Below the pieces are notes generated by a model that saw only the letters and a program-made list of their open reading frames with translations, had not been told where the DNA came from and did not search any database. Position numbers and translations under genes: made by a program. This document shows positions 4,701-62,626 of a stretch of DNA of 64,000 nucleotides, in pieces (position 1 is the stretch's first letter; every line of letters starts with the position of its first letter). Location of the stretch: positions 151,838,001-151,902,000 of the forward strand of contig OX597817.1 in assembly GCA_951406725.2 (NCBI GenBank). The letters are read 5' to 3'. This DNA is from Octopus vulgaris (taxonomy: Eukaryota).

Positions 4701-4915
4701 TACTACTGCTTGTACTCATCATCATCATCATCATCATCGTTTAACATCCGTTCTCCATGCTAGCATGGGTTGGAGGGTTCGACCGGTGATCTGGGAAGCT
4801 AGAAGGCTGCACCAGGCTCCAGTCTTATCTTGCAATGTTTCTACAGCTGGATGCCCTTCCTAACGCCAACCACTCCGTGAGTGTAGTGGGTGCTTTTTAC
4901 GTGCTCAATAATACC

Positions 4916-5137
4916 TATTTCTTTATTACCCACAAGGGGCTAAACACAGAGGGGACAAATGTATTAAGTCGATTATATCAACCCCAGTGCGTAACTGGTA
5001 CTTATTTAATCAACCCCGAAAGGACGAAAGGCAAAGTCGACCTCGGCGAAACTTGAACTCAGAACATAGCGGCAGATGAAATACCTCTAGGCATTTCGCC
5101 CGGCAAGCTAACGTTTCTGCCAGCTCGCCGCCTTACA
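4916..5137 (-). mobile_element. SINE-B, LINE-tailed variant
   Basis: tRNA-like head and GAGTTCAA B-box-like motif, gtcgactttgccttt core; 13-bp TSD gctcaataatacc (4903-4915, 5138-5150). Confidence 0.85.
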
Positions 5138-6145
5138 GCTCAATAATACCATCATCAAGAAGCTATTGAGTCTCTTTCTCATGTATTAATGGGGTTAAGA
5201 AACTTGCTCATGTAGTGTGGGTCAGTTTTCATATATTTCTGCGATGGGTTATTTCTTAATAACCACTATCAACTATTTATTTGTGTAATATCATTTACAC
5301 CAGAATGTGTATATAACGTCAGTATGTATGTATGTAATAAATGGATGTTTGGCAGAGAACACATTTACAGGATTTCCAAAAGAAGTCTCTAGAAATAAAT
5401 CTAACTCTTTATTGTGTAATATCATTGTATAATGTCTTGTATATTCAATATTAATAAAGATAAATTTGACATTAAATAATTTATCATTTTAACCACTGAA
5501 TTTAGGCATTTAGTACTACCTAAAATATCCTATAATTTTGCTAGAGTGTAGCTTATCAAATGTAAAACATAGCTTGTGTTTAGGAGAAAACAAAATTCCT
5601 ATTCAAATGGTAATTACCGGACGATTTACTGTTCGAGTCTAACCGTTTTAAGTCATAGGAGAAATGAGACTTATATCACAAATAGGCAGATGAATATTGT
5701 ATAACTTATATAATTGAAAAATTTACTATATTTTGTACATACAAGTATACCAGCCCGTGGGTGCAAGTGTGCCTGCAGGCAGGGGTTTCCCACCCCTAGT
5801 ATAGAGGTAGATAGATACTATCATCATCATCATTGTCATCAATTCGCATTTGTATTCCATAGTGGCATGGGTTGGGCATTTGTGTGTGTGTGTGTTCCCT
5901 TACTTTAACATCGCATGATGGTTGTAGTTGATATCATTCATTTCAAATCCACCAGGAGAAACATATTGGCCATTGGTAAATTTTATGTTGCTAGGAAACA
6001 GGTGAGGGTTGGCAACAGGAAAGGCATCTAGTCTGTAAGAAGTCTGACAAATCCCATCTGAAAAGCAAGCATTAAAGCAATGGTGATTTTACATACATAC
6101 ATACATACATACACATATATATATATATATATATATATAAAAAGT

Positions 6146-6400
6146 GGAGGCACGTGGCTTAGTGGTTAGGGTGTTGAACTCATGATCATATGGTTGTGGT
6201 TTCGATTCCTGGACCGGGTGATGCATTGTGCTCTTGAGCAAAACACTTCATTTCACATTGCTCCAGTCCTCTCAGCTGGCAAAAATGAGTAACACTGCGA
6301 TGGACTGGTGTCCCGTCCAGCTGGGGAACACATACGCCATTGAAACTGGGAAACCAGGCCCATGAGCCTGGCTAGCTTTTAAAAGGGTGCATTTATTTAT
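6146..6400 (+). mobile_element. tRNA-derived SINE, V-domain-like (degenerate relative near 16580-16860)
   Basis: tggcttagtgg A-box, gtttcgattcc B-box, tgctcttgagcaaaacactt segment, gcgatggactggtgtcccgtccag tail. Confidence 0.65.
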
Positions 6401-6538
6401 ATATATATATATTCAATGAGAATACAATATACCAAATTTCTAATAAGTGCTCTTGGCAGGGAAATGTCTAAAGCATTAAAAGTATTTAGACATTTAATAA
6501 GAACGATTATATATTATAAAATAAGCGCAGGAAAATTA

Positions 6539-7406
6539 CATCGAAAAATCATCACAGAAGATGTAAGTCCAAAGTAATATTGTATTAATAGATAGATGTA
6601 TAAATATATAAAGTATGATTATTCAAAAAGTTTAAAAGCTTATTTATATTTGTTCAGATATTTGCTACTACCACCAAGATCTGCAGGTATAGATCTTGGT
6701 GATAGTAGTTTAAAAGCTTATTTAAAAGCTTCCAGCTGTAAACGAATGGTTTACACCTGGTAGCTTATTAGTAAAGCACAGTCACTTTCACAGTGATCGT
6801 TAGGTATATATATATTCCATCCTCTGTCTTTCTTTTGCCATATATATGCATAACTGTGTTTGTATATATGTGTGTGTATTTGTGTCTGCATGTTTGTTTA
6901 TATTTGTACTTCCCTAAAATCATGAGCAGCAAAGTGGTGATATCACTTCCCTGACAACAAATCACTCACTGCTTATTAAGTCCTGTTTAGTCTCTTACTA
7001 ACTGCAGTTTAAATTTTAATCAATTTTACCTAATCAGAAAACAGGATTTGAAAGCTGGCATTTTCTGCATGATAGCTGTCTATCACAAAATGAAAAGCAA
7101 AATCATTACAAGGAGGATTTTTATTAAACTAATGAAAGCAAAGCATTACGATGACCAAAGTTGTAAGAACTTCTGAAGTTTTGATAAGTTTTAATGAAAA
7201 AAGTCATGTGCAACAGTCAAACAAACATGTAAATAATTTAAAAACAAAAAACATTGTCAACAAAGTTTTTGTGAAAAATTGACAAATCTGTCTGAATCAG
7301 AGGCCTATCTGTTTGGGAAAGCATGGTCTGACATGGAATAAACAAAAGTTTATATAAGACATTCTATTGTAAAAATTGCCCAACAAAGGGCTATTCAGCT
7401 AGTGTG

Positions 7407-7438
<32 letters not shown>

Positions 7439-7777
7439 TATGGCCATGAGATAGATTACTAGCCACTACACATTCTTTATTTTCTCTCCTTGTTTCTTTC
7501 TGTGTTCCTTTCTGTGGAAGAGCGTAGGCTCGAAACATTAAAGACTTTTCACTTCCCAAGTGTTAAACTAATATATATTTGTTGTCTACAACACCTGTCT
7601 TCATCTTTTATTTTTTTTTGTGAATTCTCCCTGGGCCTGGTGCAGCTATCTGGTTCGCCAGATCATCGAAAAATCATCACAGAAGATGTAAGTCCAAAGT
7701 AATATTGTATTAATAGATAGATGTATAAATATATAAAGTATGATTATTCAAAAAGTTTAAAAGCTTATTTATATTTG

Positions 7778-7808
<31 letters not shown>

Positions 7809-8530
7809 CAGGTATAGATCTTGGTGATAGTAGTTTAAAAGCTTATTTAAAAGCTTCCAGCTGTAAACGAATGGTTTACACCTGGTAGCTTATTGGTAAA
7901 GCACAGTCACTTTCACAGTGATCGTTAGGTATATATATATTCCATCCTCTGTCTTTCTTTTGCCATATATATGCATAACTGTGTTTGTATATATGTGTGT
8001 GTATTTGTGTCTGCATGTTTGTTTATATTTGTACTTCCCTAAAATCATGAGCAGCAAAGTGGTGATATCACTTCCCCTGACAACAAATCACTCACTGCTT
8101 ATTAAGTCCTGTTTAGTCTCTTACTAACTGCAGTTTAAATTTTAATCAATTTTACCTAATCAGAAAACAGGATTTGAAAGCTGGCATTTTCTGCATGATA
8201 ACTGTCTATCACAAAATGAAAGCAAAATCATTACAAGGAGGAATTTTTATTAAACTAATGAAAGCAAAGCATTACGATGACCAAAGTTGTAAGAACTTCT
8301 GAAGTTTTGATAAGTTTTAATGAAAAAGTCATGTGCAACAGTCAAACAAACATGTAAATAATTTAAAAACAAAAAACATTGTCAACAAAGTTTTTTTGTG
8401 AAAAATTGCACAAATCTGTCCTGATCAAGAGGCCTATCTGTTTGGGAAAGCATGGTCTGACATGGAATAAACAAAAGTTTATATAAGACATTCTATTGTA
8501 AAAATTGCCCAACAAAGGGCTATTCAGCTA

Positions 8531-8571
<41 letters not shown>

Positions 8572-8801
8572 TGATGGCCATGATAGATCACTAGCCACTA
8601 CACATTCTTTATTTTCTCTCCTTGTTTCTTTCTGTGTTCCTTTCTGTGGAAGAGCGTAGGCTCGAAACATTAAAGACTTTTTCACTTCCCAAGTGTTAAA
8701 CTAATATATATTTGTTGTCTACAACACCTGTCTTCATCTTTTATTTTTTTTTTTTTTTCTGAATCTCTCCCTGGGCCTGGTGCAGCCATCTGGTTCGCCA
8801 G
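6539..8801. repeat. ~1125-bp tandem duplication
   Basis: 6539-7661 is repeated at 7664-8801, differing mostly by single-base indels. Confidence 0.9.
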
Positions 8802-8880: not shown

Positions 8881-8927
<47 letters not shown>

Positions 8928-11243: not shown

Positions 11244-11476
11244 TATTTCTTTACTATCCACAAGGGACTAAACACAGAGGGGTCAAACAAGGACAGGCAC
11301 GCGGATTGAGTTGATTATATCGACCCCAGTGCATAACTGGTACTTATTTAATCGACCCCAAAAGGATGAACGGCAAAGTCGACCTCGGCAGAATTTGAAC
11401 TCAGAACGTAACGGCAGACGAAATACTGCTGAGCATTTCACCCGGCATGCTAATGTTTCTGCCAGCTCACTACCTT
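11244..11476 (-). mobile_element. SINE-B, LINE-tailed variant
   Basis: Same head, core and tail as the 60771-61330 units. Confidence 0.8.
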
Positions 11477-11864
11477 CAAAGTTAATAATACCTAAATACT
11501 GCAGCTCCACACAGAAATACTGTGACTTGTGAGGTTTAAACCTGCTCCCATATTTAAAGGGTTAAGAGCAACATTAAGTAGTTTTGTTCTCTATTCTCAA
11601 CTATAGACTCTTGTTTAAAGAAATCTGGGTGACACCAATATTAATTGATTAAATTCCAATCCAACACCAGTATGGATGCAGTTCTTTATTTCATCTACTC
11701 CAGAAGGACGAAAGTCAAAGGTGATCTGAGCAGAGGTTGACTATTTAATACTTAAACAAGCCATATCTAGCCTAAATAGTCAACTTGTTTTATGTTCAAA
11801 CTTGTCAGATCCAGCCTCTCACACCTACCCTACAATGTCATTCTAAAAGTAAACAATATCTGAA

Positions 11865-16515: not shown

Positions 16516-17360
16516 TATGTTAGGGCACTGCCTTCAAAGGAAATTTCTAATTGATTCCCAGGACCCCCATCTGAAGGTTGTATGGCCTAGTAGTCAGGAT
16601 ATTTGACTCACAATCTTTAGGGCATTGTTCCAATTATTTCAATTCCAATTCCAGGATGCACATGTTCTTGAACAAAACATATTCTTGAGCAAAACAGCTC
16701 ATATTGTTTCAGCCCACTAAACTGTAAATATGTACCAGCATCATCTGGGAGTAAATCCTGCAAAATACTAGCCCCTTTTTACAGTGGAAGTATTGTAATC
16801 CCAGTTATTTGTTCGCCAGGGAAACAAGGTGAAGTTCTAGCTTAACAAGGCTGTAGGATTGTGACTTTGATATGGACCACAATTTTTCACCTTTTATTTA
16901 TTTTATTGATCTCTATTCACATGATGATATCACAATCCCTGTCAACTAATCCTCTTTGAAGATATGTGCAATGAGAGATCACTCACATGGAAAACAAGTA
17001 AGAGTTAGGCATCCATCCAGCTGTGAAACAAAGCCTCAGTTCAATAACGTATTCATCCGATTCATGCTAGCTTGGAAATACAGACTTAAAAACAAGTGAA
17101 TATATACCACAAAGAAGTCAGTGAGCTGGTAGAATTGTTAGCAGACAGAGCAAAATGCTAAGCAGCATTTCAGCCATCTGAGTTCATATTCTGCCATGGT
17201 CAACTTGGCCTTTCATCCTTTTGGGATCCATAAAATAAGTTCCAGATGAGCATTGAGGTCAATGTAATCAACTTAGCCCCTCTCGCTGAAATAGTTGACA
17301 CTGATCCAAAATTTAAAACCAAAATATACCACCAAGAGTTTTTGTTCAATACACATATAT

Positions 17361-17796
17361 AGGCGCAGGAGTGGCTGTGTGGTAAGTATAGGTGCAGGAG
17401 TGGCTGTGAGGTAAGTAGCTTGCTTACCAACCACACGGTTCCTGGTTCAGTCCCACTGCGTGGCACCTTGGGCAAGTGTGTTCTACTATAGCCCCAGGCC
17501 AACCAAAGACTTGTGAGTGTATTTGGTAGACGGAAATTGAAAGAAGCCCATCATATATATGTATATATATATATATGCGTGTATATGTTGGTGTGTCTGT
17601 GTTTGTCCCCCCAACATCGCTTGACAACTCATGCAGGTGTGCTTAGATCTTGTAACTTAGCAGTTCAGCAAAAGAGACCAATAGAATTCGTACTAGGCTG
17701 ACAAAGAATAAGTCCTGGAGTCAACTTGCTCGACTAAAGGCAGTGCTCCAGCATGGCAACAGTCAAATGACTGAAACAAGTAAAAGAGTAAAAGAA
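17361..17796 (+). mobile_element. SINE-A with duplicated 5' 30 bp
   Basis: aggcgcaggagtggctgtgtggtaagta occurs twice in tandem, then the full body. Confidence 0.85.
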
Positions 17797-17874
17797 TATT
17801 TCTATCAGCAATCTTTCACATTATATTGTAAGCTAAAATACAGTTGACCATATTATAAGCTTTCATATTATATA

Positions 17875-18828: not shown

Positions 18829-19046
18829 ATTTCTTTACTGCCCACAAGGGGTTACACACAGAAGGGACAAACAAGGACAGACAAACAAATTAAGTCGATT
18901 ATTTCGACTCCAGTGCATAACTGGTACTTATTTAATTGACCCCAAAATAATGAAAGACAAAGTTGACCACGGTGGAATTTGAACTCAGAATGTAGCGGCA
19001 GACGAAATACCGTTAAGCAATTCGCCCGGTATGCAAACGTTTCTGC
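18829..19046 (-). mobile_element. SINE-B, LINE-tailed variant
   Basis: Same core and tail; 12-bp TSD cacctctttctt (18817-18828, 19047-19058). Confidence 0.85.
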
Positions 19047-19920: not shown

Positions 19921-20246
19921 TTTTATATATTATATTATAAAGCCAGTCAAACATTATATTACAAATTTATATATTACATATTATATTACAACATTATACA
20001 ATAAACTAAAGTACTGCCAAACATTATAGCATGAATTATTAATTTGATTAGCTTTGAAGATCAAATAGTTTCATCAGAACAGAATATTACTTGCTCTTTG
20101 GTGGCATATAATTACTAATATTTAACAGTTAATGGAAGAAATTTGTATCAAATTCTTTTTTATCACTTATTTCTCTTTTCTTTTCAAGTGTTTATTAGTC
20201 TGGTGTTTCCTTTGCTTATATATATATATTCTTTTTTTCCTTTTAG

Positions 20247-20839
20247 GTACAAGGACGACCAAAGGAGTTAAAGGTGTCAAAGGAAGCCCTGGACATTTGG
20301 CAGTCAGCATTTTTTATCTTCATAAAAAGTCCATTAAAAAATTCAGCATACCTTACGAGAGAAAGAACTATGAACTGAACATTTATCCACTACTGGCCAA
20401 TCTCTTTAGTGGACATATTAACATCAAGTTAGATGACAAGCTTGAGGTAGCCGAGCACATCGCTGTGGCCTTTGCAGTCGGATTGCTTCATGTCCTCTGT
20501 CAACCTCACCCGAAAGGATGGAACCCTCAACTTGCTGCAGTATCTTCACAAAACTCAGCGAAAATTTCACAGGAATTCGTGCCTTCTGAAAACATGGTTT
20601 TGGTTCAAGCTGGTGGTTATCATGTAGACACACCTTCAAACTATTATTACTCTCAGAACAATGTGTCTTGTATGTCAGCTGGCTGTGGATGTGGAGATCT
20701 TGGAATTAGCGACCTTGGCTGCATTGATGGATCAGGCGGTTGTGGTGGGTGTGGTGGATGTGGCGGTTGTGGTGGGTGTGGGGGCTGTGGAGGCTGTGGT
20801 GGTGGTTGTGGTGGTGGCTGTGGAGGATGTGGGGGGTGA
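20247..20839 (+). CDS. Terminal exon of glycine-rich domain-containing (GRDP/DUF1399-like) protein with Gly/Cys tail
   Basis: TTTTAG acceptor, phase 1 joins the previous exon (G|GT); AVAFAVGLLHVLCQP helix and C-terminal GGC repeats resemble GRDP-family C-termini; TGA at 20837-20839; the three exons give about 293 aa. Confidence 0.8.
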
Positions 20840-22689: not shown

Positions 22690-22886
22690 CAGTGAGCTGG
22701 CAGAATCGTTAGCTAATTGGATGAAATACTTAGAGGCATTTCTTTCAGCTCTTTACATTCTTAATTCAAATGAGGTCTGATCTGCCTTTCATCCTTTTTG
22801 TGGGTTTGATTAAATAAGTACTAGAATTAATTACATTACGTGCCCTCTCCTCTGAAATGACTGGCCTTGTGCCATAATTAGAAAGA

Positions 22887-22925
<39 letters not shown>

Positions 22926-23110
22926 GCAAGCTGGCAGAGTTGTTATACTTTAACGGCATTTCATCCATCTTTACATTCTGAGTATAAATTCCACTGGGGT
23001 AGACTTTACCTTTCATCCTTTCAGAATCAATAGCACTAGAGTCGATGTATTCAACTTACCCCATACCCTAAAATTGCTGGCTTTGTGCCAAAATTTGAAA
23101 CCATTATTAT
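22690..23110 (+). mobile_element. Two older SINE-B copies with the other tail (ggccttgtgcc...gaaa + (TTA)n); similar old copies near 17120-17320, 36860-37030, 52905-53090, 53450-53660 and 54115-55130
   Basis: gagctggcagaatcgttagc head, gcctttcatcc core, tail lacking the cccttgtggg motif. Confidence 0.65.
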
Positions 23111-26931: not shown

Positions 26932-27147
26932 AAAGGCGGAAAGCTGGCAGAAATGGCACACCGGGCAAAATGCTTAGCAGTATTTCGTCTGCCATTACAT
27001 TCTGAGTTCAAATTCCACCAAGGTCGACTTTGCCTTTCATCCTTTCGGGGTCGATAAATTAATTACCAGTTACGCACTGGGGTCAATGTAATCAACTTAA
27101 CCCCTTTGTCTGTCCTTGTTTGTCCCCTTGTGGGCAATAAAGAAATA
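26932..27147 (+). mobile_element. SINE-B, LINE-tailed variant
   Basis: Same head, core and tail; 17-bp TSD agaataagtt(c/t)gttgaa (26915-26931, 27148-27164). Confidence 0.85.
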
Positions 27148-27719
27148 AGAATAAGTTTGTTGAATCAACTCTAGTATAAAACTAGAACAACAAATATGAG
27201 CCAACAAAGGGAAACTCTACATGGTTACATGACCTGCTTGAAACAGCAGCCAAACCACCCTTAAATCACTTCTTCCTACTGTCTCATAAGCAGAAAGTAC
27301 ACACTATTTAATGTAGACTGGGACACATTGAGAATTGAGAAACAAAATAGTTATAGCTGGAATGATTCCATTTGGGTTTGCTCAATCATACAGACCTGTT
27401 GACAACAACAACAACAACAAAACTAGCACTAATTATAATAGAAATAATTGTTTCTAACATTTAACAACTATTTTAGATAACGTAGTAGTAATTACAACTA
27501 TTTCTGGCAAAACTCTCAGATTTTTAAATGGTATTTTTACATATTGAAAAATTGGCAAAATTCTTCACCTTCAATGAAATTTAGCATGCAATATTTCCTA
27601 ATTAGATACGAAACTAAAATCTAAATTACCTTTCCCAAAGGTACATTAGTATAACTTCAATAGGAAAACAAACCCTTGGCCTTATCCTATTCACTGTTTC
27701 ATCAGTTGTTGACATAACA

Positions 27720-28119
27720 TAGGTGCAGGAGTGGCTGTGTGGTAAGTAGCTTGCTTACCAACCACATGGTTCCTGGTTCAGTTCCACTATGTGACACCTT
27801 GGGCAAGTGTCTTCTACTATAGCCTCGAACCAACCAAAGCATTGTGAGTGGATTTGGTAGATGGAAACTGAAAGAAGCCTGTCATATATATATATATATA
27901 TGTATATGTGTGTGTATGTTTGTGTGTCTGTGTTTGTCCCCTAACTTCGCTTGACAATGCTGGTGTGTTTACGTCCCCCGTAACTTAGCAGTTCGGCAAA
28001 AGAGACTGATATAGTAAGTACTAGGCTTACAAAGAATAAGTCCTGGAATCGATTTGCTCGACTAAAGGCAGTGCTCCAGCATGACCACAATCAAATGACT
28101 GAAACAAGAAAAAGAGAGA
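27720..28119 (+). mobile_element. SINE-A
   Basis: Same structure. Confidence 0.85.
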
Positions 28120-35024: not shown

Positions 35025-35056
<32 letters not shown>

Positions 35057-35071
35057 GTATATATATATGTG

Positions 35072-35109
<38 letters not shown>

Positions 35110-35115
35110 TATGTG

Positions 35116-35152
<37 letters not shown>

Positions 35153-35157
35153 GTGTG

Positions 35158-35208
<51 letters not shown>

Positions 35209-35620: not shown

Positions 35621-35655
<35 letters not shown>
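33190..35655. repeat. 2.45-kb complex microsatellite (TA/TATG/TATC)
   Basis: Continuous mosaic of TA, TATG and TATC units; source of the spurious 300-833 aa ORFs. Confidence 0.95.
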
Positions 35656-35657
<2 letters not shown>

Positions 35658-36314
35658 AATATACTCTGTAATTCTTTTTGCTCAAACATGATTTCATTGT
35701 TGTTTTTGTTTAATAAAACTACTATTCACTAATCAATGTTGTTTTCTCTTATTGATCTCCATCAATCATCCTGTATAAACATAGAACGGCAGCACCCTCG
35801 TTAGAAATGTTTTGTGATTTTTTTTTCCTAACATTCTTTTTATACTTCTAATTTGTTTCTTGTTGTTTTTTTTTGTGTGTGTGTGTTCTCTTGTAAACAA
35901 CATTCCCAAATTCCTAAGCATCTTATTTAAATGATTTCAAAACTGATGGAGAGATTTGAAAGTAATAACAATAATAATAACTGAATCAACAACATACTGT
36001 CCAAATTTATATTGTTGAATTCTTTGATTGTATCTTAACACTCTGACACCCTCATATATATTCTGTTTTGGAATGAACCATTTGTATGCAGCCGTTTGGA
36101 CGCTGACAAGCGAGCACGACTGATTGGACATTCAGCTTGTTTCAGTGACAGTACTCTTTGGAGTTGGGAGTAAACACATCCCACACAGCTGCGTGTACAC
36201 ACAATGCATGTACGTGCAATGATTATACACACACGACGTGTGTGCATGCACAAGTGCAGAAATGTAAATGCAGAAAGATTGAGAGAGAGAGAGAGAGAGA
36301 GAGATTATTAAAAT

Positions 36315-46412: not shown

Positions 46413-47282
46413 TTAAAGTTTCATTTTATTGAAAACTGTGGCTTCAGCTTCAGAAATTATGGTCTGTTTCTGTGGATTAACTGAGCATTTAACAATATTA
46501 ATGTATTCAGAAAGTTGTTTGTCTGGGAGGAAGATGGCAACTAAAGCTTTATATAAAATAATTTTATTCTCTTTTGCTATAGACAGAGGGGTAAAATGAT
46601 AACTTGGCCACCAACTCTTTCGATCAGACCACACAGATTCCACCTCAGAACTAAAGCTGTCAGTGTCATATGTTTGTGTAAGAGTCTCCAGTAATTTGGC
46701 TAGCCTTGACCAAGGATCAACCATTGTCTTCCAGCAGCTATAGTCCAGTAAATCAAATAGATATTTCAGAACATCACCGTAATTATCTGAAATCATATCA
46801 CACAATGTTAACACCAATGGATCAGAAGGAACATACTTTACGAAATTCCTCAAGACTTTGACCTTTTTCTGTTCACATGCATTTGTTTGACAAAGAAAAT
46901 CATAATAAAATTTATGAGAATTGGGATTTTCAGGATTAGATAAACAATAGTCTTTGAGTAATTTTTTAACAGCTTCAAAGTTTTCATTCATTTCAAGAGC
47001 GTGCCTTTCAGCCTTTATAAAAATATCTCTCACAGCAATATTTTCTTTCACTGTAACTGCTGAAAAGCATGAGAGCATTTTAGTCATCTGTGAGTCAAGA
47101 GCAAAATTAATGGTTCCAGATTCAATTTCTGCAGAATCAGACTTCATCTTGGACTTTCTAGTATCAAGCCACTTAAGATACCAAATAAGACCTTGATAAG
47201 CAAGAAAAAGTGCCTTATTGTAGGTAACATTTCTTGACTCAGAAACAATTTGTCTTGAAGAAAGAGCAACAGATTGTAATTC
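46413..47282 (-). CDS. TAF1A: TAF1A-like, coding exon 2 (terminal)
   Basis: CTTTTATAG acceptor; motifs LAYQGLIWYLKW, NPNSHKFYYDFL, LFDLLDY, WSDRKSWWPSYHF and YKALVA parallel motifs recalled from vertebrate TAF1A (AYKGLLQYYTW, NPNAHIYLYNFL, GVLDF, RKNWWPGFHF, EKAFVA); TAA stop. Confidence 0.85.
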   Translation of the reverse strand, partial: ELQSVALSSRQIVSESRNVTYNKALFLAYQGLIWYLKWLDTRKSKMKSDSAEIESGTINFALDSQMTKMLSCFSAVTVKENIAVRDIFIKAERHALEMNENFEAVKKLLKDYCLSNPENPNSHKFYYDFLCQTNACEQKKVKVLRNFVKYVPSDPLVLTLCDMISDNYGDVLKYLFDLLDYSCWKTMVDPWSRLAKLLETLTQTYDTDSFSSEVESVWSDRKSWWPSYHFTPLSIAKENKIILYKALVAIFLPDKQLSEYINIVKCSVNPQKQTIISEAEATVFNKMKL

Positions 47283-49971: not shown

Positions 49972-50362
49972 AGCGCAGGAGTGGCTGTGTGGTAAGTAGC
50001 TTGCTAACCAACCACATGGTTCCGGGTTAAGTCCCACTGCGTGGCACCTTGGGCAAGTGTCTTCTGCTATATCCCCGGGCCGACCAATGCCTTGTGAGTG
50101 GATTTGGTAGATGGAAACTGAAAGAAGCCTGTCGTATATATGTATATATATATATGTTTGTGTGTCTGTGTTTGTCCCCCTAGCATTGCTTGACAACCGA
50201 TGCTGGTGTGTTTACATCTCCGTCACTTAGCGGTTCGGCAAAAGAGACCGATAGAATAGGTACTGGGCTTACAAAGAATAAGTCCCGGGGTCGATTTGCT
50301 CGACTGGAGGCGGTGCTCCAGCATGGCCGCAGTCAAATGACTGAAACAAGTAAAAGAGTAAA
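49972..50362 (+). mobile_element. SINE-A (TAF1A intron)
   Basis: Full family A structure, CpG-rich and therefore probably young. Confidence 0.85.
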
Positions 50363-51230
50363 CCAAAGAGTTTTGTATTGTAACCATGATACTAGTAGGG
50401 GGAGGGGGGCAGGTATTATGATACGACGAGTTCAACAGTTGAAAACTTTCTTAAAAGAAGAATAACGAGGTAGTATAATTTGGGAGAATCGCAGTAAGAT
50501 ACCCTATTTGTTATTGCGAAAAGATTGCGGAAACAAATTAATCATAGAATGCGTTGGAAATGGATAAAAGAATTTTTAAAAATAGATTCGTGTAACTTGA
50601 ATTTCATGAACCAGTCATTATGAGATGATACTAATAAGAAAAAATACAAAAGTTAATTGATAAGAACGAGGGTAGAATTTTGGAATAGCTGTCCTTCGAA
50701 GTCCCATTACATCATGGAATAGGGAAGATACACATATATCGGTACTAGTAACATAACTGTCACTTATAAACCCACGTGGGTTTATTTACATTTCTGAAGA
50801 AAAAAGATACCCTTCCCCCCACCCCTAACCCCACATATAAAAAAAAAAAAAATTTACGGAAAGTGACGATCTTCTTGTTCAAATGTAAACAAATACACGT
50901 GAGGTAAACGGGACTCATATCGAAAGAATGGCTTATATATATATATATATATATATATAAATTATATATTATACATACGTATATAATTCTGTGTTTTAAA
51001 CAATAGAAAAATTACGATCCAGAATACATTTTTTTTACCTCCCAAAATTTTCAAGTTTTTACATTTTTGCCCCGCCCTCTATCTTGCTTCTGATTTCCGT
51101 AACCTTTCCCTTTCCCATGAGGTTAGGGAATTCGGGGGACAACAATTTCAAAATTCTGGCAAAATTACGTTACGTATAACAAAGGTAGTATAATAAAAAT
51201 ATCATAAATGAATAATGAACAAATATTTAC

Positions 51231-51806
51231 TTGAATAGCTTCATCGATGCTGTTGTTTTGCAGTTGATACCATAATTGTTCAAGTTGGATATCGCTGTGT
51301 GTTACCTCCGATCTAGCGAACATGCAGAATAACTTCACCATTCGCTCGATAAAATTCAATCGGTCTTTCAACGGGTTAGAATATAGAAGTTCAAAGCCAA
51401 TTTTCGCCGCAGAACGTTTCAAATCACAAGTCGACTCCTGGTGAGAAATACTTAGTATCTGCGCTAACTCATGCCAACGGTGCATCAATAAACATTCGCG
51501 CAAAAGAAACTCTAGTTTTTGTGGAACACCTCGTGTATTTTTCTCGTAAGATAAATTGTTTTTTTTAGCTAGCTCACACCAAATGTCTTCCAGCCATTGA
51601 AATTCCTCGTCGGTTGATACATCCTCATCTATAGTTGAAAGGAACTCATTATAACATTCCGTGTCATGTAAAATAATTGATAATATCTTCTTCATCCGCC
51701 TCAATTGAACTTTGATCGCAACATCTGTATTACCGTATAAACTATCATCACTGCTGTAATTTAAATTATTTTCTGAATCATCGTCGGATTGTAGCCTTTC
51801 GTCCAT
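51231..51806 (-). CDS. TAF1A: TAF1A-like (SL1/TIF-IB subunit A, RNA polymerase I), coding exon 1
   Basis: ATG at 51806 (MDERLQSDD...), 192 open codons, CAA|GTAAAT donor at 51231, phase 0 compatible with exon 2. Confidence 0.8.
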
Positions 51807-51910
51807 AATTTCTAACAAAGGACCATGTGCTTAGATAGGAAGTAACAAATTTGTAAACAATTCCGGTGTAAGACGAAAGAGAAGCACGTTGAAATAAACG
51901 TAAGATAGTT
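51807..51910 (-). promoter_or_regulatory. Probable TAF1A 5' UTR/core promoter
   Basis: Unique sequence directly upstream of the ATG with an ETS-like CCGGAA (51866-51861) and a 4-codon uORF ATG-GTC-CTT-TGT-TAG at 51826-51812; TSS not determinable. Confidence 0.35.
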
Positions 51911-52399: not shown

Positions 52400-52824
52400 G
52401 GATCTTTTGGGCTTGAACGCCAGTTTTTTTTAATAATTTCCACGTAACTAAACACTTTTAAACTTCGTATACTGGTAGAATGTGTTTATAAAACATCTTT
52501 TTCTCTTGGCTTTATTGAGAAAATTCTATAGTTTGTAAGATATTTGTTGTTTTTTCTTCAATTTCTGCAATTTCAACCAATCAATGACGTCTATTGAGGT
52601 GAAAACATTCTGTGCCGTATGAATATGTCCCTCGTTTAAGAAACAGATTGGGTTTATTTACATTTCTGAAGAAAACAAGATACCCTTCCCCCCACCCCTA
52701 ACCCTAACTAACCCTAAATCTAAAAGAGATTGAAATGCAATAGATCGATACTAGGATCATAATAATGGGTGACAATTTCATATGACACCGCTAGAAAAAA
52801 CTGCCGGTCAAACCGAAAAGATCC
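52400..52824. mobile_element. MITE with ~30-bp TIRs and 8-bp TSD
   Basis: ggatcttttgggcttgaacgccagtttttt / aaaaaactgccggtcaaaccgaaaagatcc; TSD gttaagat at 52392-52399 and 52825-52832; internal ccctaa repeats; partial copy at about 50775-50900. Confidence 0.85.
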
Positions 52825-54181
52825 GTTAAGATTGACTATCAAATGATATGAATCATTCGTTTAAACGAGTTAAAAGCCCTACAACCAAATATCTTTTCTA
52901 CTGAAAGGACACGGCCTGAAATTTAAGGGAGGGGTTAGTCGATTAGATTGACTCCAGTACGTAACTGGTACTTATTTAATCTACCCCGAAAGGATGAAAG
53001 GCAAAGTTGACCTCGGCGGAATTTGAACTCAGACAAAATGCTGCTAAGCATTTTGCCCCGCCTTCTAACAATTCTGCCAGCTCGTCGCCTTCGCCGTATA
53101 ACCAAATATGGAACTATTTCTGACAGTTACGAACCCAGCAAATATATTTCGATCGCAATTAGATATTATAGATGTTAATTAAATGAGAAATAGATTGAAT
53201 TATAATATCTAATAAAGCAAATATATTGACGTTTAGCTCCAAGTCAACGTCTCTCGATCTGACCCATTGTCGAAAGTGCTCATGTCCTGCTCTAGCCCTT
53301 TCTAATTTTTTTCTTTGTATAATCTGTGATTATATCATTTGAGGCAGTGGATCTCAAAAGATACGTCACAAAGCACTAACCAAAATATAATTTATAATAT
53401 AATTTAGATTTCAGAGAATTCATACCAATGCAAGTTAGAAAAGAGGTAATGAGGTGGTGGAATCACTTGAGCTTTAGAGGTGGGAGAATGCTTTTTGTAG
53501 TATTTGTTTTGGTCGTTTCTATAGGAAGTTCAAATTCGACCCAAGTCAGCTTTGCTTCTCACCCCGCCTAGGGCGATAAAATAGAATGCTAGTCTTGCAT
53601 TGGGTCGATATGGCACCAACCACTTCCCCTAAATATCAGATTGTACCTATTTGAGAAACAGAGCGTGCCGGCTTGTTTCAGTTGGTTCCGTTAAATCTTG
53701 TAGTGTGCAACCAGTTGCTGTGATAGAAATAATTCACCACAAATGGTTTCATTACAGTCTTAACAGAAGATTTGGAAGAACTAGATGTAAGTCCTCCGGT
53801 AATTTTCTTTCGTGTAAATAAATGTTTATGTTAATTTTAAAATTTGCCAGCAAAATGTTATAAAATGACAATTTTCTAAAAGATGTACATGTTTATAATG
53901 AAAATCAAAGTATTTTAAATTAGAGACAAATATTATTAATAAATTAAGATAAGCATTTTTTCTGTTTTTTTTTCTTTCTACATTTATATCTACAAAACAT
54001 TTTTTACACTTTCCATCGATAGCGTACTAGTATTTTTCTTTTATCTTCAACGTATGCGATAATTGCCTTAAGCAACAGACTTATATCTTAAAATCATTTT
54101 TTATTATTCGTCATTTCGGGGAGGGGACAGATCGATTACATCGACCCCAAGGTTCAACTAGTACTTATTTTGTCGACCCTC

Positions 54182-55009
54182 GGATCTTTTCCTTTTGAAC
54201 GGAACTTTATAACATAATTTCTAGTTAACTAAAAAGTTTTAAACTTCGTATACTGGTAGAATGTGTGTATAAAACATCATTTTTTCTTGCCTTTATTGAG
54301 AAAATTCTATAGGTTGTAAGATATTTCGTCTTTAATTTCGAGCATTTCGGCAATTTTAACCAATCAAATACGTCCATTTAGGTAAATAACATTCTGTGCA
54401 TAATGAATATGTCCCTCCTTTAAGAAACAGATTGGGTTTATTTACATTTGTGAAGAAAAAAAGATACCCTTCCCCAACCCCTAACTAATCCTAACCCTAA
54501 ATCTAAAATAGATTGAAATGCAATAGATCGCTACTAGGGCCATAATTATGGGTGACATTTTCATTTGACACCGCTAGAAAAAAAATCCCATTTTCAGTAG
54601 CGGTGTCGTATGAAATTGTCACCCATAATTATAACCCTAGTATCGATCTATTGCATTTCAATCTATTTTAGACTTAGGGTGAGAGTTAGGGTTAGTTAGG
54701 GTTAGGGTTAGGGGTGGGGGAAGGGTATCTTTTTTCTTCTCAAATGTAAATAAACCCAATCTGTTTCTTAAAGGAGGGACATATTCATTGTGCACGGAAT
54801 GTTGTTTACCTAAATGGAGGTAATCGATTGGTTAAAATTGCCGAAATGCTCGAAATTAAAGACGAAATATGTTACAACATATAGAATTTTCTCAATAAAA
54901 CCAAGAAAAAATGATGTTTTATAAACACATTCTACCAGTATACGAAGTTTAAAAGTGTTTAGTTAAATAGAAATTGTGTTAAAAAGTGCCGTTCAAAAGG
55001 AAAAGATCC
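54182..55009. mobile_element. Fold-back element: ~400-bp inverted arms of the 52400 MITE family, inserted in a SINE-B
   Basis: Termini ggatcttttccttttgaacgg / ccgttcaaaaggaaaagatcc; arms complementary up to gacaccgcta...tagcggtgtc near 54570-54610. Confidence 0.85.
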
Positions 55010-55585
55010 CTTCCTCAAGGGATGAAAAGTAAAGTGGACCTCGGTGAAATTTAAACTTAAAAATGTACAGACGTACGAAATGTCGCTACGCTCTGTTAGC
55101 CGGCGTGCTAACAATTCAATCAGTTAGCCTGACCATCAGTAACACATCTCGCAGAGATTCAGAGGGAGAAAGGGACTGGCAGGCAGTCATGGAGGGAAGG
55201 GGCTATCTGTAAGCAAGCAGAAAACTGTCAATAAACTATACCTTAATAAATCTCTTTAAAGTTTTTCTGAGTCTTACATCACAATGTACAACGAAGTCAA
55301 ACAGATGAGAACCTTTGATCGAAAGCGTGTTCTTTTCTTTTAATTATTGTAGAGTGTAAGGCGGCGAGCTGGCAGAAACGTTAGCACGCCGGGCGAAATG
55401 CGTAGCCGTATTTCGTCTGCCGCACATGTGTTCGTGAAGTAAGAATTGCTGTTTCGTGGTGTTAATATTGTTAACAACTGTTGTTTCTTGTTAAACTGTT
55501 GAATAACTTAACTGTTGGAGTTTTCAATTGAAAACACTTAGTGCTTGTGGTAGCACGCGTTGTTCATTCCCCTTTGGGGGGAAGA

Positions 55586-56919
55586 ATGTCGTCTAGCATG
55601 GAGCCTACCGTTGGAGCAGAAATACTTGTTTCTCCTGTTGAGAGGAGGAAATACATGTCCGGCGAGGAGCCAACTACAGACAAGGAAATAGGGGTTTCCC
55701 CGCTACAAGAAGGAATAGCAGAGAGGATAATATATTTGATATTTTTGGAGATGTGTCTGAGAGCTCGTCAGAACTTTCACCAGAAGAGTTTCCGACTTTG
55801 CCAGAGAACAAAGGCATTGTGTCGAAGAGAATAATTGATGTGCCTAGCATCCAGATAGAACCAAAAAATGGAAAAAAAAGTTTTGCGTTGGCTGTTGGGG
55901 GTGGAACCCAGATACTGTCGACGAATAAAAGCGAAATTATGAAATACAGCAAAATAATGGAAATAACTGACAACGGTGTGGAAATTGAACCTCCGCAAAA
56001 GTTATTACAGGAAGAAAAGCAAAAAACAATAATTTTCAAAACATATTGTCTACAAAAAAAGAAAAATTGAAAGAATGTCAGAAGAGAAAATAGAAAAGTG
56101 CTTAAAGCCAATATTGGGCGACGTAGTATTTCTGAGAAGAGGAAAAAATTCGGAACGGTGGAAGTAAGGTTCACCAATAAAGAAATAGCACACAAGAACT
56201 CAGTTGAAACGTTGAAAACGAACGACGTGGAGTTAATCTCCTATTATATGGGGATGAGGACGTCGCGAATAAAAATTACAAGGGTCCCGCCAGAGGTCGA
56301 ACCTATGTGGTTGTTGGCGGCAGTCCTAATCAAAGAGGTAGAAAAAATTACTCTCCTCCAGGCTACCGCTACGGAAAACCCACGCTGGGATGGTCAAACA
56401 ATTAATCTTCTCATTCAAGCGGACCTTAAAATAATTCAAACAATTCCTGAGACAATTGAGGTAGGGGAGGAGAACCTCGTGGTGTTTGTTGAGGGCCGAA
56501 AACCTCGATGTTTTTTATGTGGTCAATTAGGCCACATTCGAAGGAACTGCAAGGAAAATGAAGAAGAGGAGGAAGAGGAGAAAAAAGACAAAGAGGAAGA
56601 AGATAAAGAAGAAACAGATGAGAAAAAAACAACAAACAAAAGAAAAATACAACCAGCAACCCAACCGAGAGCGGCGACTACTACAGAACAACGACCAAAA
56701 AAGACTGCCAGAAGAGAAAAAGAAGAAAAAGGCATAATAGCCGTATACACTAAAGATACTGAGCTCATGAGAGACATTCAACTCATAAAGACTGTAAAAA
56801 AATTTGATAACCTTTCAGAGGAATTTATCAATTACGACATATATGAAGTCTCAAATAAGACTTATAGAATTCTACAAAATAAGTACAGAAAGACTATCTT
56901 CATTGAGATTAGATTTTAA
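55586..56919 (+). pseudogene. LINE ORF1 (gag-like nucleic-acid-binding protein), two apparent frameshifts
   Basis: Three overlapping frames (55541, 55753, 56098) join; CCHC knuckle CFLCGQLGHIRRNC followed by acidic/basic tract; shifts near 55730 and at the A-run near 56060. Confidence 0.8.
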
Positions 56920-57123
56920 CAAGTCGATATTTCATGGATTACCAGCTCCGATCCCGCGAGAAAAGGAAAAGGTGGAGATTCCCCCTCCACCTGATAATTT
57001 TGTGTCGGTGGTGAGACGGGATTTTGACAAATCTATTTCCCAAGACCGTCCACCTCCGACCCTGGATCAAAAAAATGTGGAGGGTCCCCCTCCACCGGAC
57101 AATCCTAATTAAACAGGTAAGTG

Positions 57124-60100
57124 ATGGCTATTCACATTGGTTGTTTAAATGTTCATGGCCTGTTGTCAAGCTGGAAGCAAGGACGCTTTCTGAATGACAT
57201 CAGGTCGAGAAATTTGGATGTAATTGTTGCAACGGAAACCCGGGTGAAGGGGCCAAGAGATCTGCTCCCCCTCCTGAACGGCTACGAGAAATACGTTTCT
57301 CCGAGTCGGGCGGGAGGTGGGGGTGGGGTGTTGGTCCTACTAAAAAGAAACCGGGTAGCCGAGAAAAAGTTGGTTTTTTCTGACCCAGAAGGCAGGCTGG
57401 TCGTTCTCGACTTGACATTCAGTTGTGACAAGACAATCAGGCTGGTTGCTATTTACGCACCAAACATTATTGGCCCGCAAACTGAATATTTTCGTGGCCT
57501 AGGAAAGTTCCTAGCCACGTCGCATTCACTAGTAGTGTTAGGAGACTCTAATACAATATGTGCAGCACACACAGATTGTGTTGGCTCAAACTCGAACATG
57601 AACAGAAAATGTAACCCAGGCTTTCGGGATCTGCTAAGTCAATTTCAGCTAGCAGATCCATATAGGTTGGAGCACCCGAACACTCCACAGTGGACGTGGT
57701 CAAATAGTGACGGGTCTACCAGAACATATCTAGATAGGATTTTAATTAGAGAAAAAGATAAGTCCATAGTTGAGTGTCCACAGTTTTTTCTAGTCAGCTA
57801 CAGTGACCACAAGATGGTTACCTGTAAACTGACGGTAGATAAGTTGCATAGACAGGTATCTGGCTACTGGAAACTCAATACGTCCCTTTTGGCGATTGAG
57901 GAGTACAGAAAGCGGATCAAGATGTTAATACAGAGGGCATTAACAGGTACCATCATCAATAACAAATGGTGGTACGCCCTAAAAAGAGCCATCAAATATG
58001 AGTCTATTAGGTTTAGCATAAGTTTAGCTAAGAAGGGACGTAAAATAGGAGATGGTCTAGTTAAGGAACTAGAAGAAGCCTGGAGGACTGGTAATACAGA
58101 CCAAGCGAGGGTGAAAAGACTGGAGTTAAACCAGCATCTTGAAGCCCACCACATGGGAAGTATTACCAGAGCTAAGTTACGTGCAATGGGAAGTGAAGGA
58201 ATCAAAGCCGCTGGATGGGCCCGAGTGGTGGAAGCTCGGCAAGGAAATAGTTCCTCTATTCGGTCTTTGACGAATCAAAATGGTGTCTTGATAAACGAAC
58301 CCGAGAAAATGTGTGAGGTCTTTCGGGAGTACTTAGCCCAGCTGTTCGGGGGTGACGGCGGTCCTGGTGGTGGGAGCGCCCTCGAGGACTTTCTTACCGG
58401 GCTGCCGTGCCTCTGATGCGGAGTCTTGCGAAGGGCCAATCACACCTGAGGAGGTGATGGAGGCTTTGGCCGATTGTAAAGCGGGTAAGTCACCGGGACT
58501 TGATGGTCTTCCGTACGAGCTGTATAAATGTATGCCAGACTTGTTCGGGCAACTACTGACTGACGTGTACGCGAACTGGAAACAGAATGGGTTTATCCCC
58601 AGATCTGTGCGCCGGGGAGTAGTGACGTTGGTCAGAAAGGACCCGGACAAGGGGGACGTTCTAGAGAATTTCAGGCCCATCACTCTGTTAAACGCAGAAG
58701 TGATGATTTTGGCCAAGGTTCTAGCAAAAAAGTTGGCGCGTGTCGCGAATGGTATAGTCGGGGAGGCACAGACATGTGCCATCCCAGGCAGAACCATTCA
58801 GGATACCCTCCATCTTATTCGCTATACCATAGAGAGGTTTGGTAATAAATCTGGCAAAGGTGGGGCATTGGTGCATTTGGACCAGTCTAAAGCTTTTGAT
58901 AGGGTTGACCATCGATACCTAGCGACTGTACTTGCGCGGTTTGGCCTGGGCCTTGGCTTCCTCATGTGGTTTATCGCTTTGTACCACAACATTGACTCGA
59001 TAGTTCGGGTGAACGGTTTCCTTTCGAAGCCGTTCTGCATCAGACGCTCGGTTCGTCAAGGATGTCCGCTTTCACCACTTTTGTATGTGATGGCTCTCGA
59101 GCCATTACTGCAAAGGTTGAGTGGCATCCCGAGAGAACCAGGACTAGAGGAGTTTGTTACGGCTTTCGCGGATGATATCACTATCAGTGTAACCACAGTG
59201 GCACGCCTACGTGAAGTAGGTAAGACTATTGAGGCTTACGAGGAGGTAGCAGGAGCAAAGATTAACCGGGAAAAGTCGGTCGGCTTGCAGTTCGGCACCT
59301 GGGTTGGCAAGTCGATGCCTTCAGACAGTGTTGTTAGGCGCTGGACGGAGGGACCGGTTAAGTTGCTGGGAGTCTGGTTTGGACCAGGCCTCCAGATAGA
59401 GAAGAACTGGACGGAGGTATTGAGCAGGGTGGCTGCAGTAGTCAAGACCTGGTCTTGGCGGTGGCTATCCCTGAAAGGGAGGGCGGAAGTGGCCAATGTG
59501 TTTATCGCATCGGTCATTACCTACCGCCTGACCGTCGTGCCCTGTCCGGATTTGTGGTTGATCAGGTTGGTGAGACAGCTCTTTCGCTTTTTGTGGAAGG
59601 GCAGGTCGCCACTTGTGAAACGCTCTGTCTGCTGTCAAAAGCCTTTAAATGGAGGTTTAGGGATGCCTTGGTTAATGATGCGCAGACATGCGTTGAGGTT
59701 GAGGCACCTCTGGATTCTCCTGGATAGTGAACGGGTGTGGTCTCCGCTAGCCAGACAAATGTTCCCTGAGTTCAAGAGTTTTTGCGAACAGGAAGCCTGG
59801 TGTTCTCGTAGACCGTGGTCGAGTGAGTGGCATAAAGAGTGCCGTAAGGCCCTCTTGCTGTTCCGGCGCTCGGGCAACGCCAGCGGTGGGGGTTCCACAC
59901 GGATTTTATATAGTGGGTTGGTAGAGTCTGAATGCGACGATGGCCTGGGGTCGACTCTAGGTCTCGGATTTATTCAACTGGACAGCTTGTTTCATCGTAC
60001 ATTCGGGTTGAGAACGTTGGACAACTTCCAAAAGTCCTTAACCTGGCAATGCTACAGAGGTGCCTTGCCCGTTTGGGATAAGCTCGCAAGACATGGTAAA

Positions 60101-60518
60101 CGTCAGTCGCCAACCTGTCCAAGATGCGGGGGGGGACAGGGAAACCGTCCCTCACGCTATTGTTCAGTGTCCGGAGATAACTGAAATGTGGGCTTATGCT
60201 GAACATCTGTTGTCCGGCGAAGGAAGAGTACGGCTGTTGACTGAGTCAATTATAAAAATTGACCCACCGGGAGTTCTAACGAACGAAGGTAAGAATTGTT
60301 TTCTCACGGTTGTAGCAATAGCAAAAGAGGCTGTACGGAAGACTAGGATAAAAGGAATTAAGACAGGCAACTTTATCTCTGGTGACAATTTACGATCCTT
60401 TTTTTCTTTTCATTTGAAAAGGAAACTGTGGCTGGAGAAGAGGTGTCTGTCAGAGTGTACCTTCCAAAAGAGATGGAAGTATGTTGCACGAGTGTTGTGC
60501 GTGCAAGGAACCGTGTGA
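57124..60518 (+). pseudogene. LINE ORF2: APE endonuclease + reverse transcriptase + C-terminal zinc finger, two frameshifts
   Basis: APE motifs (LNVHGL, ATET, IYAPN, GDSN, LDRI, SDHK), WKLNTSLL, KSPGLDGLPYELY, FRPITLLN, DQSKAFDRVDH, VRQGCPLSPLLY, FADD, LGGLGMP-like motif, CPRC..ETVPHAIVQC; shifts near 58410 and at the G-run near 60135. Confidence 0.92.
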
Positions 60519-60770
60519 ATAGACGAGGAAAAAAAAAAAAAAAAAAGGAAAAATAAAAAGGTATCAGCGGTAGATCGGGGCTTGTGGGATCGGAGCGTAA
60601 CTTGATCATCGCTTCATTTGTATTGTTTTTGTACTGTGTATTCCATTCGATTTTTATGTATTGTATTTTATTTTTGATGTCACATTTATATAAAATCATA
60701 TCGATTCACTGATCCCATCAGTTGTACTGTCCATATCTATGTTTGGCCCCCGGTGGGCAATAAAGAAATT

Positions 60771-61330
60771 CGTATTTCGTTTGCCGTTACGTTCTGAGTT
60801 CAAATTCCGCCGAGGTCGACTTTGCCTTTCATCCTTTCGGGGTCGATAAATTAAGTACCAGCTGCGTACTGGGGTCGATCTAATCGATTGGCCCCCTTAA
60901 TCCGTTTGTCTGTCCTTGTTTGTCCTCTCTGTGTTTAGCCCCTTGTGGGTAGTAAAGAAATAGGTATTTCGTCTGCCGCTACGTTCTCAGTTCAAATTCC
61001 GCCGAGGTCGACTTTGCCTTTCATCCTTTCGGGGTCGATTAAATAAGTACCAGTTACGCACTGGAGTCGATGTAGTCGGCTTAATCCGTTTGTCTGTCCT
61101 TGTTTGTCCCCTCTGTATTTGGCCCCTTGTGGGTAGTAAAGAAATAGATATTTCGTCTACCGCTACGTTCTGAGTTCAAATTCCGCCGAGGTCGACTTTG
61201 CCTTTCATCCTTTCGGAGTCGATTAAATAAGTACCAGTTATGCACTGGGGTCGATATAATCGACTTAATCCGTTTGTCTGTCCTTATTTGTCCCCTCTAT
61301 GTTTAGCCCCTTGTGGGCAATAAAGAAACA
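60771..61330 (+). repeat. Tandem array of three ~185-bp SINE-B units carrying the LINE-type 3' tail
   Basis: Units begin at (c/g)gtatttcgtctgccg-like sequence at 60771, about 60963 and about 61147; each ends cccttgtggg(t/c)a(g/a)taaagaaa. Confidence 0.9.
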
Positions 61331-62626
61331 AGAAACATTAGCACGCCGGGCGAAATGCTTAGCGGTGTTTCCTCTGTCTTTATGTTCTTAGTTCAAATTC
61401 CGTCGAGGTCGACTTTGCCTTTCATTCTTTCGGGGTCGATAATTGAAGTACCAGTTGCGTACTGGGGTCGATCTAATTGATTGCCCCCCCCCATACCCCT
61501 TGTGCCTAGAGTAGAAAATTAGAAAAGATTATTGTAGAGTGTGATACCCCACTGTTATAATGAATATACTGTAACAGAAAACTTTCACATGGAAAATTAG
61601 TTAGGTGGATTCCTTTGAGCATACAAAAACGTGCATTATTAAAAACGTCACGAGGAAAGAAAGTCCTCACAGTTAGGGTTTAATACTTTGCAAGTCGGGT
61701 CTTCCACTTTGCTAGCGTTCGGTTCGTGGTGATATGTATGTCTGTCAAGGTTATAAACGTCGGAGAGAAAATGAGTTCGTCGGCGGGTCATCAATTTTTA
61801 ATTACCAGAGAAGTCTCTGTAACCAGTTTAGTGGGTTTGGCCGTTAAATTGCAATTGATAGTATACAATATTAGATAGGTTGTGTGAAAAGGTGATAATC
61901 ACTGCAACAATATATATATTTTTATTACCCAGATCATTTGTATTTACATATGTGCAATAATTGTTTAGGTAAAGTAGTATACATGGGATGGTGAATGTGG
62001 TAGCTAAAATTTTTCACAGCATAAAATATTGTAATTTATATGAAAATCGTTCGTGGATATTATAGACAGAATAAGTAGAAAGAGTGAGAACACCTTATCA
62101 CAAACTATGTAGCACCTAAGGCTGTTCTGTTTAGGAATCAATATCCCAGCATTTTATAACATTTAGTCAAATCTTCTAGAACTTTCGATAGACCTATTTA
62201 GCAGGAAAATGCACAAAACATAACTCTCAGGTTTACTGATTATTTGGTTATGTACTAGCTGATCTGATTTATCAAACCACGTTCCCGTAGGTATTAATGT
62301 CCAGTAACGTAGCTGGGAGCGAGCAAAGGAGCTACGCATATGGCTCTGCTGTGTAGACATGTACAGGCTTATGCAAGGCCCCAGGGGTGGCAAACTCAAG
62401 AGCTGCCCGTGTGGCACACACATTAGCTACACTTTAGTTAATGCGCTTTATGTGGTAAAAGAGTTAAACCGTGGTCCTAAACTGGAGAATCTGAGATGAT
62501 GGTTCAAAATTTAGTAGAAACCTCGCTTTGAGAATTTAAGGTTAGGCTTTGGATTTAGGATTAAGGTTAGAATTAGGTTTAAGATTATGATTATAAAATT
62601 TAATAATCCTTTTAAAACTAACAATA

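Follow-up and report, generated by a model that had tools for sequence, protein, structure and literature searches.

SINE copies nested in the head of their own family, and a tail variant associated with a GGTAT target, in Octopus vulgaris

Octopus genomes reportedly carry tRNA-derived short interspersed elements (SINEs), described by Ohshima and Okada in 1994 under names said to include OK and OR1. A further name, OR2, is given in a citing text (PMC4758252). We analysed a 64-kb window of the O. vulgaris contig OX597817.1 (positions counted from its first base), which holds copies of a SINE, here SINE-B, and a long interspersed element (LINE) that ends in the SINE-B tail. Like the published elements, SINE-B is an abundant octopus SINE, possibly of tRNA type; it is assigned to none of them. 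An original prediction, made from the letters of the window, held that one variable base in the SINE-B tail (T or C) marks two source lineages with two target sequences, GGTAT and AGAA.

Among the closest described systems is crocodilian SINEU/Tx1-Mar (Kojima 2015, PMC4494074). There, too, SINEs mobilized by Tx1 elements show target preference, with two preferred sites in one repeat, and tandem copies arise by sequential insertion that sandwiches a target-site duplication (TSD); co-transcription with the target was proposed to strengthen targeting. However, that target is a Mariner DNA transposon, whereas the octopus target is the SINE's own head. In the available text, moreover, SINEU-1 shows no 3′ end in common with a LINE, the two sites are ascribed to different Tx1 families and no link to a tail variant is drawn. 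SART1Bm and R1Bm are reported to use target-like RNA ends (PMC7265360, PMC6007223), whose terminal bases, it was proposed, pair with the nicked strand and so determine where reverse transcription begins (PMC7265360). Those elements are autonomous R1-clade LINEs with strict targets (28S rDNA, telomere); SINE-B is non-autonomous, with many dispersed, degenerate targets and differences between sub-lineages. Human L1/Alu (PMC3649969) shares with the octopus pair an APE-type second open reading frame (ORF2), TSDs of 12–17 bp and the sufficiency of ~4 terminal matches (L1 priming requires about 4 matching terminal bases), but L1 pairs a poly(A) tail, whereas SINE-B has no poly(A) and its matching bases lie beyond a fixed tail. 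In RTE-related SINEs (PMC6007223), a family-specific RNA end likewise correlates with the TSD start (for RTE, the correlation is between the 3′ end and the first TSD base), over 1–2 bases of microsatellite tail as opposed to the 4–7 bases fitting the element's own head site in octopus.

The ingredients, Tx1-mobilized SINE targeting and RNA-end annealing, are already known, and self-head targeting in octopus would be the new part. The literature searched held no paper dealing with target preference of octopus SINEs, or with a SINE–Tx1 pair that targets the SINE's own head, with subscription papers and Repbase reports, both possible places of record, mostly outside that search; five SINE motifs sought in the main texts of papers had 0 occurrences.

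A nested composite and two sites in the SINE-B head

SINE-B is a dispersed, non-coding element of ~220–230 bp. Its head, possibly of tRNA type, shows A- and B-box-like motifs by eye only; ARAGORN called 0 genes and Rfam gave no tRNA match for 55300–61600. The stronger of our two main findings is a composite on the forward strand at 55.3–61.5 kb, in which a 14-bp TSD (55343–55356, 3′ copy 61528–61541; 0/400 random flanks reach this match) surrounds a single SINE head, then a 5.3-kb LINE and three SINE-B bodies, and finally the remainder of a SINE with another tail. This TSD belongs to the original host SINE, a member of the other-tail subfamily. The single head (55357–55406, with an A-box-like motif by eye) contains two sites: site A, between 55373 and 55374 (AGAAAC at 55374), and, 33 nt downstream, site G, between 55406 and 55407 ((G/C)GTATTTCG at 55407). 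Both preferred motifs are sites in the SINE's own head, as had been noticed.

The LINE (55423–60770) stands at site G, with a 16-bp TSD that starts CGTAT and has one mismatch (55407–55422, 3′ copy 60771–60786). Three array units follow: unit 1 (60771–60962), which starts at site G; unit 2 (60963–61146), which starts with GGTAT at site G and has a T tail; and unit 3 (61147–61330), which starts with GATAT at site G and has a C tail. The remainder of the host SINE then runs from site A (AGAAAC) to its different tail (61331–61527). Unit 1 is chimeric, with a core of another subfamily to ~60898 and then a SINE-B T tail. Nesting at the head sites recurs outside the window, at site G in the transcript Locus_4380 and at site A in the protein records P0014 and P0017.

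Open reading frame 1 of the LINE (ORF1, 56071–56919) carries a CCHC knuckle (PF00098), and its ORF2, broken over three frames, comprises an APE endonuclease (57121–58416, PF03372), a reverse transcriptase (58337–60184, PF00078) and a last segment at 60042–60518, all on the forward strand. The closest solved structures (Protein Data Bank) to ORF2 are of L1 ORF2 (E = 6e-12), and its named relatives include a protein of Argonauta hians (61%, the best) and 'Transposon TX1 uncharacterized 149 kDa protein' (37%). Domain order and these named matches point to a Tx1-like LINE. Its 3′ end (60736–60770) is a SINE-B tail with C at the variable position (60758) and the identical 4-bp hairpin; 60736–60768 is 91% identical to that tail over 33 nt (E = 1.5e-6). 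Because its last 35 nt match the SINE-B tail, the LINE is likely to represent the partner family of SINE-B. The one LINE copy seen, at head site G with the 16-bp TSD, is a putative instance of a family-wide target preference.

The array is likely to reflect a series of insertions into a single head, each joined at its 5′ side through homology to that head. Serial insertion predicts units no more alike than dispersed copies and a mixture of T and C. Indeed, the units are 91–92% alike, compared with 84–93% among all or dispersed copies, and the array mixes both variants. If microhomologies within one SINE had instead mediated unequal crossing-over or slippage, the product would be a SINE-derived satellite, whose three junctions are not insertion events. 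The 184-bp period (88% matches) and the single head would suit such an origin, and SINE-derived satellites have been described in reptiles (PMC10702118). However, the test for a satellite, units more alike within the array, failed on the identities above; the units differ at the variable base and the junction site and include another subfamily, the LINE carries its own TSD at the identical site, and the T–GGTAT link described below survives without the array (6/7 T versus 0/7 C copies). Recombinational duplication is the weaker account of the array, and we consider it distinctly improbable. Retrotransposition of the whole composite was also considered and judged unlikely, as it would put 5 kb of LINE under a head transcribed by RNA polymerase III (Pol III).

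The tail variant and the bases that follow it

The SINE-B tail motif had 9 matches in the window, against 0.05 expected by chance. Setting aside the LINE end and a match at 3895–3913, which lies in a local duplicate of another copy, left 7 independent SINE copies. The single-nucleotide polymorphism (SNP) is T at 4928, 11256, 60950 and 61134, where the next bases are GGTAT, GGTAT, GGTAT and GATAT, and C at 18840, 27135 and 61318, followed by AGAAA, AGAAT and AGAAA. All seven copies thus agree with the original prediction (4/4 T copies with GGTAT/GATAT, 3/3 C copies with AGAA; Fisher p = 0.029), against background frequencies of 0.0008 for GGTAT and 0.007 for AGAA. The LINE breaks the rule, as had been noticed, with C at 60758 followed by CGTAT; adding it raises p to 0.14, the four dispersed copies alone give p = 0.33, and 3/7 copies are units of one array, which leaves the window statistics thin. 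The junctions reported for the T copies were correct, but not the tail spelling gggT throughout, as the copy at 11244 reads ggaTag rather than gggTag.

Three of the four dispersed copies have clear TSDs of 12–17 bp. The full-length T copy at 4916–5137 (reverse strand) has a 13-bp TSD, whose 3′ copy (4903–4915) starts with GGTAT and whose 5′ copy lies at 5138–5150 (P = 0.0014). The slightly 5′-truncated C copy at 18829–19046 (reverse) has a 12-bp TSD that starts AAGAAA (18817–18828/19047–19058), and the C copy at 26932–27147 (forward; the 27147 copy) a 17-bp TSD with one mismatch that starts AGAAT (26915–26931/27148–27164), its target having TGGC just upstream of the nick, as at head site A. 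At 11244–11476 (reverse), the TSD of the T copy is degenerate, with a weak 7-nt match, TAGGTAT, in the 5′ flank near 11488–11494 (P = 0.018). Random-flank P values for the confirmed TSDs (three dispersed SINEs and the LINE) were 0.001–0.002. The motif opens the TSD clearly in 3/4 dispersed SINEs, weakly in one, and also in the LINE. At 4916, 18829 and 27147 it stands in both TSD copies, not merely in the element. Because the motifs open the TSDs, the bases downstream of the tail are target DNA, as had been claimed. On the 5′ side of the nick, only 1/5 dispersed targets is similar to the head site.

The duplicate set aside above (3893–4104, reverse, 96% identical to the 4916 copy, with an identical downstream TSD at 3880–3892) belongs to an older local duplication at ~3700–5150, with copies ~1 kb apart, that carried the SINE along with the TSD downstream of it and part of a neighbouring repeat. 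Relatives that share the head and core but end in a different tail lie at 52883–53109 (reverse), 17120–17325 (forward) and 55343–61541 (forward, the composite's host); their TSDs start with ATATT, ATAT or ATTAT, a further target class that is probably served by another partner LINE. Two diverged other-tail SINEs stand head to tail at 22690–23105, with an (ATT)n run between them.

The variant does not appear to divide SINE-B into two lineages. No body column co-segregated with the SNP among the seven window copies, and two separate full-length lineages were rejected on that ground; the array unit with C also has higher identity to T copies (92–93%) than to other C copies (88–89%). The SNP is a stem position of a hairpin (4-bp stem, 5-nt loop) common to SINE and LINE tails, and in copies with an intact stem T replaces a G–C pair with G–U. 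The SNP, which swaps G–C for G–U in the hairpin, is probably not itself causal; its behaviour suggests a marker linked to the 3′ flank rather than a badge of two old lineages.

Outside the window, two tables of O. vulgaris transcripts (PMC4199593 Table S1 and PMC3387010 Table S2) gave at least 10 tails among the rows listed. A junction was scored as GGTAT-class at ≥4/5 matches to GGTAT, a threshold set after the data were seen. Table S1 supplied at least 8 tails, the other rows listed being chance matches. Its T tails are followed by GAATG, AGTAT, GGTAT, GGTAT and TGTAT; in Locus_4380, the copy whose T tail is followed by GGTAT sits inside a different SINE head, at site G, and in Locus_1591 both the bases after the T tail and the TSD start with GAATG. 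Its C tails are followed by TATAT, GATAC (a diverged junction) and AAATC. Table S2 supplied at least 2 tails in 15 places listed, both C, followed by (TA)n and CTAGT. Among these rows, GGTAT-class junctions follow 4/5 T and 0/5 C tails (p = 0.048; T alone against a background of 0.016, p ~ 4e-7). AGAA follows 0/5 C tails in the DNA copies listed, two of which run into (TA)n.

Pooling window and listed rows, GGTAT-class junctions follow 8/9 T and 0/8 C SINE copies (p = 0.0004; p = 0.003 with the LINE; p = 0.005 without array units and LINE), and AGAA, as a site A match, follows 3/8 C and 1/9 T copies (p = 0.29). The TSD start accordingly fits site G at ≥4/5 bases in 8/9 T copies, while for C the fit to site A holds in 3/8 only. 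That the entire association is a small-sample accident seems very improbable: the p values of 0.33 for dispersed copies and 0.29 for C and AGAA would allow it, but the T–GGTAT link was replicated outside the window and AGAA in 3/3 window C copies is far above background.

Read in antisense, the tail has a coding frame that covers the SNP and the bases following it, and proteins were searched for such junctions. A word-indexed search gave 1 match (an Octopus bimaculoides UniRef entry, 88% to the SINE antisense translation) and a profile search 29; a longer protein search for the tail antisense frame gave 0. Eleven junctions had a readable SNP residue, the others being short of the tail, ambiguous or chance-like; these are diverged, mostly unnamed records and were kept out of the statistical tests. 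Eight are C-type: two continue into AGAA/site A (P0001, P0017), one into RRTA (P0019), three start T-A-T-like (P0005, P0022, P0027) and two fit neither (P0010, read by eye, and P0012). Of the three T-type junctions, P0029 continues with GGT, P0014 lies at site A and P0011 fits neither. P0001, a single O. bimaculoides protein, fits C with AGAA. The set repeats the heterogeneity of C and adds two further site A nestings, one C and one T. A reading of some junctions as C plus GGTA was dropped when the adjacent residue showed TA-repeat starts. In P0029, the T-type tail is apparently joined near the very start of another SINE head, possibly a third self site.

The variant therefore predicts the target in its T half, which held outside the window, and not in its C half. 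The clean rule of two lineages and two targets fails on C tails before AGAA (0/5 outside) and on T tails at GAATG (Locus_1591) and at the head AGAA site (P0014), and the symmetrical form is to be dropped. T marks a GGTAT-targeting sub-lineage, and C is a mixed, probably ancestral allele. AGAA is nonetheless a real target class although C does not predict it, because its 3/3 occurrence in window C copies far exceeds background; a species difference may add to the failure outside, given that P0001 fits C with AGAA. The durable results are self-head nesting by the SINE and its LINE, and T with GGTAT.

Target choice by RNA pairing and its alternatives

In target-primed reverse transcription, the 3′ end of the nicked strand is complementary to the start of the TSD. 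With belief and doubt about evenly divided, we propose that the target is chosen in two stages. A LINE endonuclease of loose specificity would first nick the DNA; reverse transcription would then begin only once the few RNA bases immediately beyond the tail had paired with the nicked end. Pol III would read through the tail into the flank of each source copy. As that flank is the source's own TSD, daughters would land at look-alike sites and pass on identical read-through. In this way the flank would transmit target preference from copy to copy; the T allele would mark one expansion from a source in GGTATT, and C, which the LINE carries, would be the older allele, spread over several target classes (AGAA, (TA)n and others). 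Head sites would be reused since they offer long perfect pairing, and one partner could serve all.

Several features are consistent with this proposal. No T4 run occurs in the head, the array or the 4916 and 27147 copies, and the first lies 174–1024 nt past the tails; with no such terminator, read-through RNA is plausible and transcripts would carry the source flank. The target starts seen (GGTAT, GATAT, AGTAT, TGTAT, CGTAT, AGAAA, AGAAT) mostly have G at position 2 and A at position 4, and one loose nick preference could cover both the GGTAT and AGAA classes. C tails in at least three target classes can be explained by a single annealing rule without three enzymes.

A number of points weigh against pairing. 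APE endonucleases mostly specify bases 3′ of the junction, as in L1, and the TSD motifs fit annealing and enzyme specificity alike, so that they cannot separate the two. Read-through SINE transcripts are themselves predicted from the sequence. The LINE sits in the exact site G register though the first base of both its TSD copies is C, which would leave the end of the predicted RNA mismatched; the target of the 27147 copy fits site A upstream of the nick (TGGC), a likeness not expected from annealing; and T tails occur at GAATG and at site A. The 18 DNA junctions overall come from more than one species or stock. Finally, the similar two-site pattern of Tx1 and SINEU was ascribed to different partner LINEs (PMC4494074).

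Several Tx1 families with different endonuclease specificities may instead have moved SINE-B, at different times or through different tails, and the SNP would only mark the subfamily active alongside a GGTAT-cutting partner. We regard this as a lesser but serious possibility. Besides the two dissimilar sites of one transposon used by Tx1-Mar and SINEU, it gains from the 13 recently active L1-Tx1 families listed for O. vulgaris (PMC13282606 Table 1), from the position of the SNP in the tail hairpin, from the LINE having nicked site G despite a changed first base and from the upstream fit of the 27147 target. However, the sole LINE seen has a C tail and yet lies at site G, where T SINEs insert; the target classes, at least three in number, would demand three enzymes; and upstream similarity is confined to 1/5 dispersed targets.

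A variant of annealing concerns AGAA itself, which could repeat the tail (AATAAAGAA ATAAGAA; tail repeat AGAAATAAG) through tail duplication or slippage of the reverse transcriptase, with C copies priming at AAGAA-like targets and no source in site A. The tail does contain AAAGAAAT, the 27147 TSD continues tail-like (AGAATAAG), the 18829 TSD starts AAGAAA and two outside C tails run into (TA)n, matching the terminal ATA of the tail. This leaves GGTAT unexplained, and exact nesting at head site A recurs (61331, P0014, P0017); it also remains an annealing model. We consider it unlikely, if a little less so than recombination as the origin of the array.

Taken further, the RNA-pairing proposal would describe a self-targeting SINE–LINE pair whose target preference is inherited through flanking DNA and not through protein. 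Each TSD would serve as the 3′ guide of a read-through RNA, one reverse transcriptase would sustain several SINE lineages with different, heritable and drifting motifs, and self-head insertion would rebuild the promoter and reinforce the loop. We put this extension forward tentatively and think it less probable than the two-step choice itself. If annealing is true, a very abundant natural family offers a genome-scale test of the shares of endonuclease and RNA–DNA pairing in non-LTR target choice; it would also account for stacked SINE arrays that resemble satellites, and would suggest a Tx1-type enzyme for which a change of RNA end shifts the insertion motif. If several partners are at work, the octopus locus repeats the SINEU/Tx1-Mar case, except that the target is the element itself, and would chiefly concern repeat curators.

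Other sequences in the window

The window is AT-rich with long microsatellites, including a TA-rich compound microsatellite of 2.4 kb (33187–35663). A second abundant repeat of ~400 bp occurs in more than 10 copies at 70–87% identity (1275–1720, 17388–17800, 27719–28116, 49973–50362, 62620–63020 and others), and a 400-bp repeat stands three times, once inverted, directly upstream of the composite (52400–52800, 54182–54583, 54591–55009). A tail scan of bacterial and archaeal genome contigs gave 0 matches. A recent tandem duplication of ~1.1 kb joins 6539–7661 and 7664–8801 (97% identical). An open frame at 20126–20839 (forward), with a Gly/Cys-rich GCG repeat at its end, is possibly an exon. 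The open reading frame at 46413–47282 (reverse) belongs to a host gene and matches TAF1 subunit A of RNA polymerase I (PF14929, E = 5e-35); that at 51165–51830 (reverse), with no Pfam match, may be another exon.

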